64,000 nucleotides of DNA from a phage, in the sequence record PX880103.1. One strand, given 5' to 3'. Both the position numbers and the translations under genes were made by a program. Positions 2,074 to 45,811 of the stretch are shown here, piece after piece. How positions within the stretch are numbered: position 1 is the first letter of the stretch; each line of letters opens with the position of its first letter. The notes below the pieces were generated by a model. The model saw nothing but the letters and a program-made list of their open reading frames with translations, made no database searches and was not told where the DNA came from.

Positions 2074-4770
2074 TCAGCCAAACAGGAAGTCTAACGAAGC
2101 TTTTTCCTCATAGTCCATACCCGCCGATTCACACATACCCGCAAGCGGTTTAACAAACGATTTTTGGAACAAAGTTGAGTAGTCAATCCAAGACAGTACG
2201 TCAGAACGAATTTCCTTTGGAAGTTCTGTACCCGACGGCCAAGCAATACACTTGTCACCAAATGGATTTCCTTCACGTAATGGAAGAACCATTACTTTAT
2301 TTCCATCCAAAATTGGAGCTACACCTAAACCACTAACAGCTCGACGATAAGTTAGCACACCACGAATATGGAACGGGCATTTAAATCCTGGCCAACCTTT
2401 ATCATCATATTTCGCTATATCGTTCGCAGTTTTTACTTCAGCAATAACTTTATAGTCAAGTTGACGATATTCTTTCTCGAAGTTCTTGTAATATTCTTGG
2501 ACAGACTCTTCACCTTCCTGAAGAATACGACGAATACTTTCTTCGAGAGCTTCTTGCACTGCCTTTGGTGTTGAACTCTGCTGAGTTTCCATACCCATGA
2601 TTTTTAGATGCGGTTCAGCAAATCGCTTATCTTCCATATCATAAACGTTCAGAGCATAACGCTTTTTCGCTTTCCAAAATCCACCAACACCCTTTGAACC
2701 AAGTGGAGGGCAAGAAATAGCTTCACGGTCCATATGCATCAGATGCTCGCGGTTATTCATATAATCACATAACTCACGATATGCAACATCAATCATAGGT
2801 TCCATCTTTTTCTTACCGAACTGATTCATGAATTCAACCAAATCGTTCTGCTCTTTGAATCGGTCAAGACCTACTTTTTCAATAACTTTATCTACGCAAA
2901 CATATACCGAATCAGTATCACCTGCTGCAATGAAATCTTCACCATTAGTTCCGCATACTTTATTCAGATATTCATTAATTTTACGAGCAATCCACTGAAT
3001 ACCAACTTGGCCGAAAATTGTGATAGCAGTAGCATTTCGCAAATCATAGTAACGGAAATGAATATTACCAAGAGCACCATAAAGACTGTTAATAAGAATT
3101 TTACGGTTCAGCTGATTTGTGTTAGCAAGTGTAGCTGCTTTTTCACATTCCTCAATCAGACTATTGAGAACAGATTCAGTATAATTCGATAGCTCATTTA
3201 AGAAATCATCACTGAACTTAACATATCGTTCAACTTCTGGTTTAGTTGAACAGGACCCTGCGCCTTTCATAATAATCTTTTTAATAGCTTCGGCATTCAT
3301 TTCTTCAGCGAACATTTTCTTTTTCCAATCTTTACGCTGGAAAAATACTTTAGCAATTTCCTTTGGAATGATACCTTCTTGATGCTTATCATACATCCAT
3401 CCATTCGGAGAACAAGAATATTCATCACTCGGTTTAGGAGCTGTTCCTGCGATATATTCATGAATTGGATGAACTTTAAACTGCCCACGAATAGTCTCAG
3501 GACTAATGTTAACCTGACGAATAATGCTCGGATACAGAGACGTCAAGTCAAAACTCATAATATATCGACGAGCAATTGGTTTAGGTTCAAATACAAATGC
3601 ACCCGGAAAACTTTGTTTAACGTGCGAACCTTGTTGAGGAATAACCTTATGTTCACCTTTCAATGAGTTAAAAATAATAGCATCCCAAGTTTTAATAGGA
3701 CTCATTACACCAGAAAAAGGCATTTTAGCATAATAAGACATACTTAAAACTAGATCGATAAACCCGCGAATTTTATCAATTGCTTGAACTGATTCTACGT
3801 CAATGATGTTATAACTAATGTATCGTTGATGATTAGTCTCACGAAGTTTATTAATAGGGCCATCATATGGTAATTTACCTTTTTTGGTTTCATGTTGAGC
3901 AACTGATTCCAAAGAGAATGACGGCAAATTAGTAAAAGCGAATTTCTTGTATAAATCTAAATAATCAAGAATAGATACGCCATCAATAGAATAAATTTCT
4001 TTGCTACCGTACATATTTTGAATTAGTTTAGATTTTACTCGACCGATTGGAGAGAAGCGTTTCATACTGCGTTCACCTAGAATCATTTTAACACGATTCA
4101 TGATATATGGAACGTCAAATCCCTCAATATTCCAACCAGTAAAAATAGCAGGTCGTTTCTGTTCCCAGAGATTGATATATTCCATGAGCATATCACGCTC
4201 ATTATCGAATGGCATATAAATTACTCGGTCAAGAATTTCTTGAGGAACTTCATCACCACCTTCACAGTCAAGCTTAGCAGCTAACTTTGCATCCCATTTT
4301 GATACTGAGCCGTACATTGAATTCAAAAGGTCGAAAACATAAAAACGGTCGTCAATTGAATCATAATGAGTGATAGCATCAATTTCATATTCTGCTTTCA
4401 TTGGGTCAGGAAATTTATCACCAGTAACCTCAATGTCACAGTTAGCTACACGAACAAATTTTCGGTCATAAACAATTTCTGAACCATATGTATCACTGAT
4501 ATAAGCGAGTTTAAAATCGTTCATACCGAGAGCTTCGAGACCGATGTCTTCCATTCGCTTCATCCAATCTCGAGCATCTTTCATTGATGGAAATTTTTGA
4601 GGAGCGCAGTTTTTACCATAGATGTCTTTGTATTTTGACTCTTCCTTACAATGCCTAAACATAGTTGGAAGATATTCTACTTCACGAGTACGTTCCTTTC
4701 CATTTTCATCAATATAGCGTTCAACAATATTATTTCCGACTGTTTCGATAGAGATATAAAATTCTTTCAT
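2074..4770 (-). CDS. 43: DNA polymerase (family B) with 3'-5' exonuclease
   Basis: 898 aa, matches T4 gp43 length and sequence as remembered. Confidence 0.95.
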   Translation of the reverse strand: MKEFYISIETVGNNIVERYIDENGKERTREVEYLPTMFRHCKEESKYKDIYGKNCAPQKFPSMKDARDWMKRMEDIGLEALGMNDFKLAYISDTYGSEIVYDRKFVRVANCDIEVTGDKFPDPMKAEYEIDAITHYDSIDDRFYVFDLLNSMYGSVSKWDAKLAAKLDCEGGDEVPQEILDRVIYMPFDNERDMLMEYINLWEQKRPAIFTGWNIEGFDVPYIMNRVKMILGERSMKRFSPIGRVKSKLIQNMYGSKEIYSIDGVSILDYLDLYKKFAFTNLPSFSLESVAQHETKKGKLPYDGPINKLRETNHQRYISYNIIDVESVQAIDKIRGFIDLVLSMSYYAKMPFSGVMSPIKTWDAIIFNSLKGEHKVIPQQGSHVKQSFPGAFVFEPKPIARRYIMSFDLTSLYPSIIRQVNISPETIRGQFKVHPIHEYIAGTAPKPSDEYSCSPNGWMYDKHQEGIIPKEIAKVFFQRKDWKKKMFAEEMNAEAIKKIIMKGAGSCSTKPEVERYVKFSDDFLNELSNYTESVLNSLIEECEKAATLANTNQLNRKILINSLYGALGNIHFRYYDLRNATAITIFGQVGIQWIARKINEYLNKVCGTNGEDFIAAGDTDSVYVCVDKVIEKVGLDRFKEQNDLVEFMNQFGKKKMEPMIDVAYRELCDYMNNREHLMHMDREAISCPPLGSKGVGGFWKAKKRYALNVYDMEDKRFAEPHLKIMGMETQQSSTPKAVQEALEESIRRILQEGEESVQEYYKNFEKEYRQLDYKVIAEVKTANDIAKYDDKGWPGFKCPFHIRGVLTYRRAVSGLGVAPILDGNKVMVLPLREGNPFGDKCIAWPSGTELPKEIRSDVLSWIDYSTLFQKSFVKPLAGMCESAGMDYEEKASLDFLFG

Positions 4771-43603: not shown

Positions 43604-44167
43604 TTATTTACCTAGTTTAGTTATTATAGCTTCGGCAGCAGCTTTTAGCTTAGATGCAGTGTTAATACGATTTTTAATTTCAGTATAAGCATCGCCAAGA
43701 ACATCAAGGCTATCAGAATAAACACTTACACTATTGCGTTCGCTATTTGAAATAGAACCTTTAGTTTTACGATCAAAATCAGTGTACACATCTTGAAGAT
43801 CGCGGGCTGCCTTCTTTGCATCATCTAACGCATCAAGAGCTTTATTCAAAGCATTGACATATTTTTTAGTATCAAACATATTCTTAGAAATTTTGACAGG
43901 TGCGCGTTCAGGAGTAGCTAAGGCAGATTTAGGAACCTGAGCGCCTGATGCTAATTTCTTAGAAATTTTGAAAAATGCTTTATTGAATTTATTTTCTTGA
44001 CTCATCGTAAAAGAACTATTATCAATGTTATACATTTCAATAGCTTTAGCTTTCCACTTAAGAAAATCGCCACGGTCTTTTGGGTCCAATTGGAAGAATA
44101 CTTTAGTAAGATCTGCTTCAGATGGTAATTTTGCTGCTTCGGTTAAAAATTCGGCATAGGTTTTCAT
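43604..44167 (-). CDS. Candidate internal protein with capsid-targeting-like leader
   Basis: Starts MKTYAEFLTEA, same leader pattern as the ip genes; 187 aa; followed by a terminator. Confidence 0.5.
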   Translation of the reverse strand: MKTYAEFLTEAAKLPSEADLTKVFFQLDPKDRGDFLKWKAKAIEMYNIDNSSFTMSQENKFNKAFFKISKKLASGAQVPKSALATPERAPVKISKNMFDTKKYVNALNKALDALDDAKKAARDLQDVYTDFDRKTKGSISNSERNSVSVYSDSLDVLGDAYTEIKNRINTASKLKAAAEAIITKLGK

Positions 44168-44249
44168 TTAAAATCCTTGAAATAATTTATCGGTTGGTTA
44201 TTAATTATTTATTACTTTGTTATTATCCGTAACAGCATTCTCTATGTGA

Positions 44250-44287
44250 TTCAAACTAAAAAGCCCCAACCTTTCGGTCGGGGCTAA
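44250..44287 (-). terminator. Rho-independent terminator closing the tRNA/stable-RNA cluster
   Basis: Minus strand AGCCCCGACCGAAAGGUUGGGGCU followed by UUUUU. Confidence 0.6.
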
Positions 44288-44290
44288 GCC

Positions 44291-44601
44291 TTGCGGCAAC
44301 CTTGTCGGGGTTCCACCTGCTAAGGCAAGTGTTTGTACGAAACGCCGGGATTCGAACCCGGTTATTAAGCAGTTGACGCTACTCAATATTTTTAAAAGGC
44401 CATATCTCGACCATATCCGAACGTTCCGTCAAAAACGCTACTCGGCTTACGGCAAAGATATTTCCTCGAATCGATAATTCTGTGCGCCGTTTCTGCTGTG
44501 ATGTAAGGGGACATTAACAGATCGTAAAGATTTGATAATGTCAGTCCTTACTCAGGGAACATCAGTCCGACGACTTACCGGTAGCGACCCGGTTTCTTGT
44601 T
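44291..44601 (-). ncRNA. Structured non-coding RNA region downstream of tRNA-Arg, with a tRNA-like 3' domain (possible small stable RNAs)
   Basis: No credible ORF; canonical T-arm CCGGGUUCGAAUCCCGG at 44345..44361 with a 7 bp acceptor-like pairing (44338..44344 with 44422..44428); D and anticodon arms could not be folded. Confidence 0.35.
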
Positions 44602-44677
44602 TGGTCGAGGCAGTAGGGATCGAACCTACGACCTAGGACTTAGAAGGTCCTTGCTCTTCCTTCTGAGCTATGCCTCG
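44602..44677 (-). tRNA. tRNA-Arg (anticodon UCU)
   Basis: Hand fold: 7 bp acceptor CGAGGCA/UGCCUCG, anticodon loop CUUCUAA, T-loop UUCGAUC, encoded CCA; 76 nt. Confidence 0.85.
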
Positions 44678-44681
44678 GATT

Positions 44682-44756
44682 TGGCGGACGTGATAGGATT
44701 CGAACCTATAACCAATCGCTTAACAGGCGATCGCTCTGCCATTGAGCTACACATCC
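44682..44756 (-). tRNA. tRNA-Asn (anticodon GUU)
   Basis: Hand fold: acceptor GGAUGUG/CACGUCC, anticodon stem AUCGC/GCGAU with loop CUGUUAA, T-loop UUCGAAU, encoded CCA; 75 nt. Confidence 0.75.
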
Positions 44757-44760
44757 AAAT

Positions 44761-44847
44761 TGGTGGGGAGTGATGGAGTCGAACCACCCGAGTCGCAATG
44801 ACAATGGATTTACAGTCCACACCGCTACCTCTACGGGATAACTCCCC
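44761..44847 (-). tRNA. tRNA-Tyr (anticodon GUA), class II with long variable arm
   Basis: Acceptor GGGGAGU/ACUCCCC, anticodon loop CUGUAAA, variable arm resembles bacterial tRNA-Tyr, encoded CCA; 87 nt. Confidence 0.75.
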
Positions 44848-44856
44848 AAATTAATT

Positions 44857-44931
44857 TGGTGGCCCTGGGTGGAATTGAACCACCATCTGGCGATTATGAG
44901 TCGCTTGCTTGAACCTTCCAGCTACAGGGCC
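44857..44931 (-). tRNA. tRNA with anticodon CAU (Met, or Ile if lysidine-modified)
   Basis: Acceptor GGCCCUG/CAGGGCC, anticodon loop CUCAUAA, T-loop UUCAAUU, encoded CCA; 75 nt. Confidence 0.8.
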
Positions 44932-44939
44932 AAATTTTC

Positions 44940-45425
44940 TTATTTTATGTAATATTTATTTAAAAACTTTCTAGCTTGAGTATGGCTAACATTTATAGCG
45001 TTTGCATAATTTTTAATAAAACCTCGTTCATCCATATTAAAATTTTCTAATATTTTTAATCGTCTAGTTATCTCATCTTGACTTAAGGTACTTGCATTAT
45101 TTTTAGAAATTTTTTCTAAGGACTGTGCCGAGTGTTTTCGACCATTAAAATTAAAATTTTTAGATTTTGGAGGAAATCTAGCATTTAATCTCGCATCTTT
45201 TGTATTTTGATTATTAGTTGCGCAATATATGTTATTTAATGAATATGGTCCTTTATCGCCGAAACGGCACATGCAGTATTCATGACCCTTTCTTCCACGC
45301 TTATCATAATTTCCCGTTGATTTCCACCAATGCAACCATTCATCAAAAGTTAAATTCCATTCAATGTTTCTACGTATAGCAGAATTCCGCTGAGAAATAT
45401 ATTTTGCATAATCTTCTTTCATCAC
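44940..45425 (-). CDS. Putative HNH-family homing endonuclease-like protein embedded in the tRNA cluster
   Basis: 161 aa; GHEYCMCRFGDKGPYSLNNIYCATNNQN cysteine/Asn-rich nuclease-like core plus C-terminal helix-turn-helix-like tail; free-standing between tRNA sub-clusters. Confidence 0.45.
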   Translation of the reverse strand: MMKEDYAKYISQRNSAIRRNIEWNLTFDEWLHWWKSTGNYDKRGRKGHEYCMCRFGDKGPYSLNNIYCATNNQNTKDARLNARFPPKSKNFNFNGRKHSAQSLEKISKNNASTLSQDEITRRLKILENFNMDERGFIKNYANAINVSHTQARKFLNKYYIK

Positions 45426-45469
45426 AAATTTCTCTACTTATTCAATACACTGAGCTAAATCAGCAAAAC

Positions 45470-45559
45470 TGGCGGAGGCGATAGGATTTGAACCTATGAG
45501 TCGCCGGAGCGACTGCCGGTTTTCAAGACCGGTGCATTAAACCACTCTGCCACGCCTCC
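45470..45559 (-). tRNA. tRNA-Ser (anticodon UGA), class II
   Basis: Acceptor GGAGGCG/CGCCUCC, anticodon stem CCGGU/ACCGG with loop CUUGAAA, long variable arm, encoded CCA; 90 nt. Confidence 0.85.
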
Positions 45560-45561
45560 AG

Positions 45562-45635
45562 TCTCCGTGGCAGGATTTGAACCTACGACATTCTGCTCCC
45601 AAAGCAGACGCTCTACCAAACTGAGCTACACGGAG
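45562..45635 (-). tRNA. tRNA-Pro (anticodon UGG), CCA not encoded
   Basis: Acceptor CUCCGUG/CACGGAG, anticodon stem UCUGC/GCAGA with loop UUUGGGA, T-loop UUCAAAU; 74 nt. Confidence 0.8.
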
Positions 45636-45645
45636 TAAATTAAAT

Positions 45646-45719
<74 letters not shown>

Positions 45720-45724
45720 AAATT

Positions 45725-45811
45725 TGGTGCGAGAAGTGGGACTCGAACCCACAAGGAAATCATTCCGCAGCATTTTAAGTGCTGTGCCTTTACCAATTTG
45801 ACCATTCTCGC
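45725..45811 (-). tRNA. tRNA-Leu (anticodon UAA), class II
   Basis: Sequence GCGAGAAUGGUCAAAUUGGUAAAGGCACAGCACUUAAAAUGCUG...CACUUCUCGCACCA; matches T4 tRNA-Leu as remembered; 87 nt. Confidence 0.85.

Follow-up and report, generated by a model that had tools for sequence, protein, structure and literature searches.

What is encoded between the last tRNA gene of a phage tRNA operon and the terminator of that operon? This question is raised by about 300 nucleotides of phage record PX880103.1 (positions 44291-44601, read on the minus strand of a 64,000-nt stretch of this record that was analysed as a whole and is referred to as the window). The source phage is of the T-even type, and the nucleotides in question lie directly downstream of a gene for tRNA-Arg(UCU) and end at an intrinsic terminator. 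An initial annotation had described them as a single structured non-coding region with a tRNA-like domain at the 3' end, and had offered T4-type small stable RNAs as one of several explanations. Here, we combine information about the genetic environment, comparative sequence alignment and RNA folding to clarify what the region contains, how its components are built and what they may do.

Genetic environment and identity of the region

Searches of the whole window with ARAGORN and Rfam identified eight tRNA genes, all on the minus strand between 44602 and 45811. When a phage collection was searched by blastn, the region following the last of them matched 806 records, nearly all from Tevenvirinae, and the match in the annotated T4 record MT984581 coincides with two misc_RNA features, namely rnaD, labelled 'small, stable RNA; species 2 RNA', and rnaC, labelled 'species 1 RNA'. 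Pairwise alignment revealed a near-identical succession of rnaD, rnaC, trailer and terminator in the window and in T4, the apex of rnaD excepted. The T2L record AJ880101 also annotates both rnaD and rnaC. Transfer of the T4 coordinates, on which the predicted ends of both RNAs are based, results in the following order:

44602..44677, minus strand: tRNA-Arg(UCU), last gene of the tRNA cluster (ARAGORN; 68.1 bits with the Rfam tRNA model); its 3' CCA terminus is 1 nt away from rnaD
44481..44600, minus strand: rnaD homologue (T4 species 2 RNA), ~120 nt (alignment with the T4 misc_RNA rnaD)
44475..44480, minus strand: 6-nt spacer
44336..44474, minus strand: rnaC homologue (T4 species 1 RNA), 139 nt (alignment with the T4 misc_RNA rnaC)
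44286..44335, minus strand: conserved 3' trailer, 50 nt (present in T4-like and Dhakavirus loci)
44257..44285, minus strand: intrinsic terminator of the tRNA operon, AGCCCCGACC-GAAA-GGUUGGGGCU followed by UUUUU (stem-loop 44285-44262 and U-run)

Just as in T4, rnaD is located immediately upstream of rnaC, which itself occupies the distal end of the tRNA operon and is followed by trailer and terminator. We therefore read the region, with a probability of about 85%, as the distal end of a T-even tRNA operon in which separate homologues of rnaD and rnaC precede a conserved trailer and the terminator. The option of T4-type small stable RNAs thus proved correct. The region is indeed structured and non-coding and the predicted terminator is present, but the view of a single element has to be given up in favor of two RNAs plus part of the 3' trailer. 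The identification is real but not new, because the species 1 and 2 RNAs of T4-type phages have been known for about 50 years.

In T4, the tRNAs and both small RNAs are carried on one precursor of ~1.75 kb, transcription stops after the gene for species I RNA, and growth in laboratory hosts does not require the tRNA region (PMC2330249). The T4 RNAC and RNAD accumulate late and have been validated by northern blotting (PMC9697503), and the probe sequence printed in that work matches the 5' half of rnaC as delimited here. Their function is given as unknown (PMC3014915; PMC9697503; PMC12685909). Comparative alignment, which the initial annotation had proposed as a check for compensatory changes, provided strong conservation and covariation, and since the T4 RNAs have also been detected on northern blots, the proposal of a structured RNA stands. 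The rnaC copy of the window differs from that of T4 (~139-140 nt) by two substitutions in 139 nt and shares with it the position before the operon terminator and the trailer, while the tRNA cluster is of the T2L instead of the T4 type.

The cluster has the order Leu, Gly, Pro, Ser, ORF, Met, Tyr, Asn, Arg (44602-45811, minus strand) and corresponds to the T2L/RB1/RB3 type described in PMC2330249 and not to the T4 type. It lacks segB, tRNA-Thr and tRNA-Ile, and the end of an ORF is found upstream of tRNA-Leu instead of tRNA-Gln. The set Met, Tyr, Asn, Arg following an ORF is that of T2L (AJ880101). The tRNA-Arg (44602-44677) has the UCU anticodon of T4 tRNA-Arg and a largely different body sequence, by which it appears to be an isoacceptor replacement of the T4 gene and not its orthologue. 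The ORF within the cluster (161 aa, 44940-45425, minus strand) occupies the site of T4 segB and T2L trna.1, has no Pfam match, belongs to phrog_16521 with unassigned function and may be a mobile or homing-type insert. The first gene past the terminator (187 aa, 43604-44167, minus strand) falls into phrog_2280, also of unassigned function, and its sole Pfam match, cytochrome b562, is sub-threshold. Shigella phage pSs-1 is 99-100% identical over the rnaD-rnaC region; this phage and many relatives contain, right after the terminator, an insertion of ~560 bp with an ORF (gp151; pSs-1 locus 2914-3387) that is missing from the window (site ~44248-44262).

Coding potential

In most related genomes, rnaC and rnaD are either unannotated or covered by a CDS for a 'hypothetical protein'. 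The presence of this label in many GenBank records, together with a 40-aa ORF (44392-44514) and a 61-aa ORF (44201-44386) in the window that have annotated counterparts in several records, could be taken to mean that the region encodes a small protein. No ORF larger than 61 aa overlaps positions 44200-44650, and the 40-aa ORF, which spans the junction, has no conserved start in relatives: ATG, TTG, GTG or no start codon at all is found among near-identical sequences, and in T4 the stop comes earlier. In other genera this ORF is impossible because rnaC is flanked by tRNAs there. Furthermore, substitutions in rnaC are compensatory in RNA helices. On the basis of the unstable start codon, the tRNA-flanked location and the helix compensation, we rejected the small-protein reading, the probability of which we consider minimal; the 'hypothetical protein' calls over rnaC and rnaD are very likely false predictions. 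The initial statement that the region holds no plausible ORF is thereby borne out.

The predicted fold of rnaC

An alignment of 22 distinct rnaC homologues (alignment A3; overall, comparisons covered 22-26 homologues from more than 10 phage genera) indicated that the strand directly following the T-stem has its partner at the very 5' end of rnaC (44344-44338 with 44473-44467; Model B), so that the whole 139-nt RNA is predicted to form a single oversized cloverleaf, i.e., a four-way junction of an acceptor stem, a rod in the D-arm position, a hairpin in the anticodon position and a T-arm, from the following elements:

44467..44473, minus strand: 5' strand of the acceptor (terminal) stem, CGAUUCG, pairing with 44338-44344 (covariation)
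44397..44466, minus strand: long rod in the D-arm position, comprising P1a, P1b, P1c and P2 (covariation, MFE, RNAalifold)
44427..44432, minus strand: P2 loop UUGACG, putative kissing partner 1 (paired 100% with 44373-44378 in 22 sequences)
44363..44388, minus strand: P3 hairpin in the anticodon-arm position, stem of 8-10 bp, loop with CGUCAA (covariation)
44345..44361, minus strand: T-arm CCGGG UUCGAAU CCCGG (sequence; covariation)
44338..44344, minus strand: 3' strand of the acceptor (terminal) stem, CGUUUCG, directly after the T-stem (covariation)

The helices of the rod are P1a (AGG/CCU), P1b (AUAUC/GAUAU), P1c (GCC/GGU) and the P2 hairpin, CCG..AGCGUUU[UUGACG]GAACGUU..CGG. Both copies of a GAUAUGG direct repeat already recognized in the initial annotation (44417-44411 and 44406-44400) reside within this rod. 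Past it come an 8-nt linker, P3, one A and the T-arm. Downstream of the 3' strand of the acceptor stem come U, a base that varies (A at 44336 in the window) and CAA, which is invariant. Changes on both sides affect six of seven pairs of the P2 inner stem, and six of eight pairs of the P3 stem covary, to which RNAalifold adds two pairs, leaving a 6-nt loop. The third pair of the T-stem is G-C in 10 homologues, U-A in another 10, A-U in one and U-G in one, and the T-stem is kept in Kanagawavirus Q7622 and Winklervirus Kc304, where the T-loop is replaced by UGCAUGC or UGCAUUC. The terminal stem exhibits a Watson-Crick switch between G-C (14 homologues) and A-U (eight homologues). Standard pairs occupy only 72% of its cells because a tandem UxU is present in 21 of the 22 sequences; in Yersinia phage fHe-Yen9-01, U-A and C-G pairs replace the UxU, so that the terminal stem is an uninterrupted helix of 7 bp.

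Across the 22 homologues, full Model B has 90.2% of its cells paired and 23 pairs changed on both sides, a level of support that was reached by none of 500 shuffles, and slid controls were paired to only 37-45%. RNAalifold, run independently, returned the same fold with 40 pairs, 24 of them compensatory, and the terminal stem is part of the single-sequence MFE structure in 21 of the 22 homologues. For rnaC of the window, the MFE amounts to -50.2 kcal/mol (z -4.55; matched by none of 200 shuffles), and for rnaD to -37.5 kcal/mol (z -3.24; matched by one of 200 shuffles). The structure of both RNAs thus exceeds chance. A covariance model that we built from the 22 homologues, the window sequence being one of them, scored 162.9 bits at 44333-44475, compared with a best score of 22 bits in 0.88 Mb of unrelated viral DNA.

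The initial annotation had located the tRNA-like part elsewhere, in a 3' domain of ~92 nt closed by a 7-bp acceptor-like helix and containing a perfect T-arm. The T-arm was found exactly as specified (44361-44345, minus strand), and the helix also exists in the window, where ACGGAACG (44429-44422) can pair with CGUUUCGU (44344-44337) in eight pairs, one of them G-U, over a span of 93 nt. The last ~93 nt (44429-44337) might accordingly be a self-contained degenerate tRNA, made up of this helix and the T-arm and preceded by a leader of ~200 nt. In line with such a possibility, 84.7% of the helix cells are paired across homologues, and a weak alignment of the Rfam tRNA-Sec model (RF01852) to 44337-44429 makes use of the very same helix (16.6 bits, E 1.8, as compared with a gathering score of 47). 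However, not a single one of its pairs is changed on both sides in the 22 homologues, the fourth pair is G-U in eight and non-standard in 13 of them, and the helix is broken in fHe-Yen9-01. It is part of the MFE structure in 0 of 22 sequences, and imposing it carries a penalty of 13.3 kcal/mol in the window and of 6.5-26 kcal/mol over all 22. The ACGGAACG strand is, moreover, taken up by the P2 stem and the kissing loop, and in the T4 annotation the 5' end of the RNA lies 44 nt upstream of the base of the helix. The lack of compensation, the absence from all MFE structures and the energetic cost led us to reject ACGGAACG/CGUUUCGU as a conserved fold, and we judge the self-contained 93-nt tRNA very improbable. 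Since the ACGGAACG strand lies inside the covarying P2 stem, rnaC is better described as one cloverleaf than as a leader plus a 92-nt domain: the conserved tRNA-like frame encompasses all of rnaC and is closed by pairing between the two ends of this RNA.

Relation to tRNAs, tmRNA and known RNA families

Neither ARAGORN nor the Rfam tRNA model (RF00005) detected a tRNA in 44291-44601, even at E-values up to 10. The covariance-model search suggested by the initial annotation, performed with Rfam 15 over 44150-44601, yielded no family at gathering score and hence no family match for rnaC or rnaD; at E-values up to 10, only chance-level matches appeared (tRNA-Sec, isrK, anti-hemB and others). A tmRNA was not found by ARAGORN, and the Rfam permuted-tmRNA model reached 10.1 bits, with the T-arm only. 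Because no Rfam family matched, the alignments assembled here (A3/A5 for rnaC, A4 for rnaD) could seed two new families.

What rnaC has in common with a canonical tRNA is a four-way junction, a location in tRNA arrays with tRNA-like spacing, and a terminal stem of 7 bp (44473-44467/44344-44338, with the tandem UxU inside) that lies right next to the T-arm (44361-44345), which has a 5-bp stem and the loop UUCGAAU. It differs in that a rod of ~70 nt takes the position of the D-arm, which is lacking, that there is no 7-nt anticodon loop and the loop in the anticodon position is sequestered, and that no CCA is encoded at the 3' end of rnaC in the window. The 3' end has the form CGU-N-CAA (CGU-A-CAA in the window) with CAA invariant in 22 sequences; in the Marfaviruses MY02 and Clarke_MM3, both Klebsiella phages, it reads CGU-CCA-A, which could represent an encoded CCA. 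Acceptor/T-arm mimics on a non-tRNA body are familiar from the tRNA-like domain of tmRNA and from the bacterial Y-RNA-like YrlA. Like these, rnaC fuses such a mimic to a non-tRNA body and is presumed to be matured by tRNA enzymes. Unlike them, it lacks both a tag reading frame and a Ro-binding stem, and there is no similarity in sequence or by covariance model.

A putative kissing-loop contact in rnaC

The P2 loop UUGACG (44432-44427) is exactly complementary to CGUCAA in the P3 loop (44378-44373). All six positions are paired in 22 of 22 sequences, and two of the pairs are changed on both sides: fHe-Yen9-01 has UUGAUG/CAUCAA, and the Klebsiella Marfavirus MY02 and its close relative Clarke_MM3 have UUGGCG/CGCCAA. 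These are two independent compensatory events at different positions. Three further homologues keep UUGACG/CGUCAA. The concerted change of UUGACG/CGUCAA in two lineages points to a kissing-loop lock, evidence that we regard as suggestive and not as conclusive; the covariation would be compatible both with an intramolecular lock and with a dimer contact.

Kissing hairpins with six fully complementary bases are exemplified by HIV-1 TAR/TAR* and ColE1 RNA I/RNA II. In rnaC, two hairpin loops of ~6 nt are likewise complementary over all six bases, but here the pairing is proposed within one molecule and from covariation alone. In the literature searched, neither the oversized cloverleaf nor the kissing pairing is described. 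The refined rnaC fold and its co-varying kissing loop are the sole parts of this analysis that may be new.

Structure and variation of rnaD

In rnaD, a 5' hairpin precedes a long rod, which is closed by GUCGUCG/CGGCG-C-AC and topped by a hypervariable apical hairpin:

44577..44593, minus strand: rnaD 5' hairpin ACCGG-GUCGCUA-CCGGU (fold; the closing pair covaries)
44503..44554, minus strand: hypervariable rnaD apex, ~50 nt (alignment A4)

The 5' hairpin is identical with the small CCGG-N7-CCGG hairpin that had been noticed initially (44593-44577). In alignment A4, which comprises 17 distinct sequences, its closing pair is A-U in 10, G-C in five and G-U in two cases, and the RNAalifold consensus has 25 pairs, six of them with compensatory change. 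The 5' 44 nt and the 3' ~22 nt of rnaD are invariant in these sequences. The apex, on the other hand, differs among T4-like phages, in which four sequence types unrelated to one another were found, each of which folds as a hairpin. The rnaD of the window is identical to that of T4 (~118 nt) over the 5' 44 nt and the 3' ~22 nt and likewise lies between tRNA-Arg and rnaC, and the end homology to T4 rnaD that served for its annotation in the T2L record is present at both the 5' and the 3' end. It differs in its apex (~50 nt), which is of another sequence type and 2 nt longer, and in its 3' end, which is CACA in the window and CACC(A) in T4. A T-arm is absent, and rnaD is not tRNA-like.

The 3' trailer

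The trailer is about as well conserved as rnaC itself. It contains a 7-bp hairpin, CACUUGC-CUUA-GCAGGUG (44331-44314), in which one relative (L037) shows a compensatory replacement of G-C by A-U, and two small hairpins. The motif CCCCGAC occurs twice, at 44310-44304 in the trailer and at 44283-44277. The second copy forms the 5' strand of the terminator stem, so that the 3' strand of this stem could also be bound by the first copy.

Distribution and modularity

The region is conserved in ~750-800 phage records. rnaC is matched in 751 records, in 491 with at least 99% identity, and rnaD in 735, only five of which reach this level. Many Tequatrovirus records contain rnaC copies that are 100% identical to that of the window, and T2L rnaC is 98% identical. 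The two genes do not always occur together. rnaC without rnaD was found in Kanagawa-, Moon-, Karam-, Gelderland-, Kagamiyama-, Winkler-, Teguna- and Marfavirus. In Karam-, Moon-, Gelderland-, Kagamiyama- and Winklervirus, it directly adjoins a tRNA gene on either side, at the distances of a few nucleotides that are usual in tRNA arrays; in Kanagawavirus, it directly follows a tRNA gene, with an annotated tRNA on the upstream side only, and the Teguna- and Marfavirus records show no annotated tRNA beside it. Conversely, in the Dhakavirus phages IME281 and Esco_phi_B-01 (at ~500-560 of the loci), rnaD is joined directly to trailer and terminator and rnaC is precisely absent, and the rnaC covariance model found nothing in the Dhakavirus loci. 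The gap looks as if the rnaC cassette had been deleted there or inserted elsewhere. Judging from these arrangements, rnaC and rnaD are separate modules. In many T4-like phages, an ORF takes the place of tRNA-Arg upstream of rnaD.

When 185,579 genomes of bacteria and archaea were scanned with a specific motif, the sole match was in Rahnella, and we dismissed it as chance because no similarity extends outside the motif. A metagenome scan retrieved T4-like contigs only. The loose pattern GTTCGAGGA-N95-125-CGTACAA met 120 loci in viral contigs, almost all by chance, and none of the 100 loci evaluated with the rnaC model scored above 22 bits.

Processing and possible function

According to our working model, rnaC and rnaD would be co-transcribed with the tRNAs of the operon, as stated for T4 (PMC2330249). 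Its acceptor/T minihelix would render rnaC a substrate of the tRNA-processing enzymes, by which it would be excised. Processing by RNase P is a step known from the classical T4 literature, and this enzyme would set the 5' end of rnaC. rnaD would then be the structured remnant between tRNA-Arg and the 5' cut of rnaC, shortened as far as its closing stem. Through the loop-loop lock, rnaC would become compact and nuclease-resistant and would lose any anticodon function. If rnaC is locked and non-decoding and yet exposes an acceptor/T minihelix, it would follow that it acts as a tRNA mimic which binds a protein recognizing the acceptor/T-arm end of tRNAs, and not as an antisense regulator. Our confidence in a function as a non-decoding, protein-binding tRNA mimic is low. 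In its fullest form, the model envisages rnaC as a ring-closed, kissing-locked mimic, a movable cassette of Tevenvirinae tRNA arrays that titrates or redirects a host factor or an anti-phage nuclease recognizing the acceptor/T-arm, and so complete a picture must be called unlikely.

Two other explanations have to be weighed against it. rnaC could be a tRNA gene in decay, rnaD could be a structured spacer, and both could be functionless and accumulate after tRNA excision merely through their nuclease-resistant folds, which would agree with the non-essential nature of the T4 tRNA region (PMC2330249), with the hypervariability of the rnaD apex, with the absence of rnaC from Dhakavirus, and with the fact that no function has been found over ~50 years (PMC3014915; PMC9697503). 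Mere by-products would, however, hardly be expected to differ as rnaC does from the adjacent rnaD (at least 99% identity in 491/751 and 5/735 records, respectively), to have helices and a tertiary pairing maintained by compensation across more than 10 genera, or to keep the 5' 44 nt and 3' 22 nt of rnaD invariant in 17 distinct sequences. In addition, evolution of three phage populations on ECOR34 led to a convergent SNP in rnaD in every one of them (PMC12685909). We consider a functionless origin distinctly unlikely.

Alternatively, both molecules could be trans-acting sRNAs that base-pair with host or phage mRNAs, using the rnaD apex or the rnaC linkers as seeds. They have been called small regulatory RNAs (PMC9697503; PMC12685909), and the discrete types of the rnaD apex are what might be expected of a target-matching module. 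Nevertheless, complementarity of at least 13 nt was not found elsewhere in the 64-kb window, a blastn search of the rnaC/rnaD region against 5,426 E. coli genomes, which is insensitive to short seeds, gave no match, and no target has been reported (PMC3014915). The most conserved loops of rnaC pair with each other, which also speaks against their use as seeds. A role in antisense regulation is thus distinctly improbable in our view.

Significance

rnaC and rnaD are annotated in T4 and T2, but most related GenBank records carry either no annotation for them or a wrong one. For rnaC, a comparative structure now replaces the intuitive reading as a short tRNA-like element, and the co-varying contact between its two loops is open to mutational test. 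Both RNAs emerge as independent cassettes under different conservation regimes. The predicted fold of rnaC, its putative loop contact and the modularity of the two genes offer concrete handles on the long-unsolved role of both RNAs in T4-type phages.
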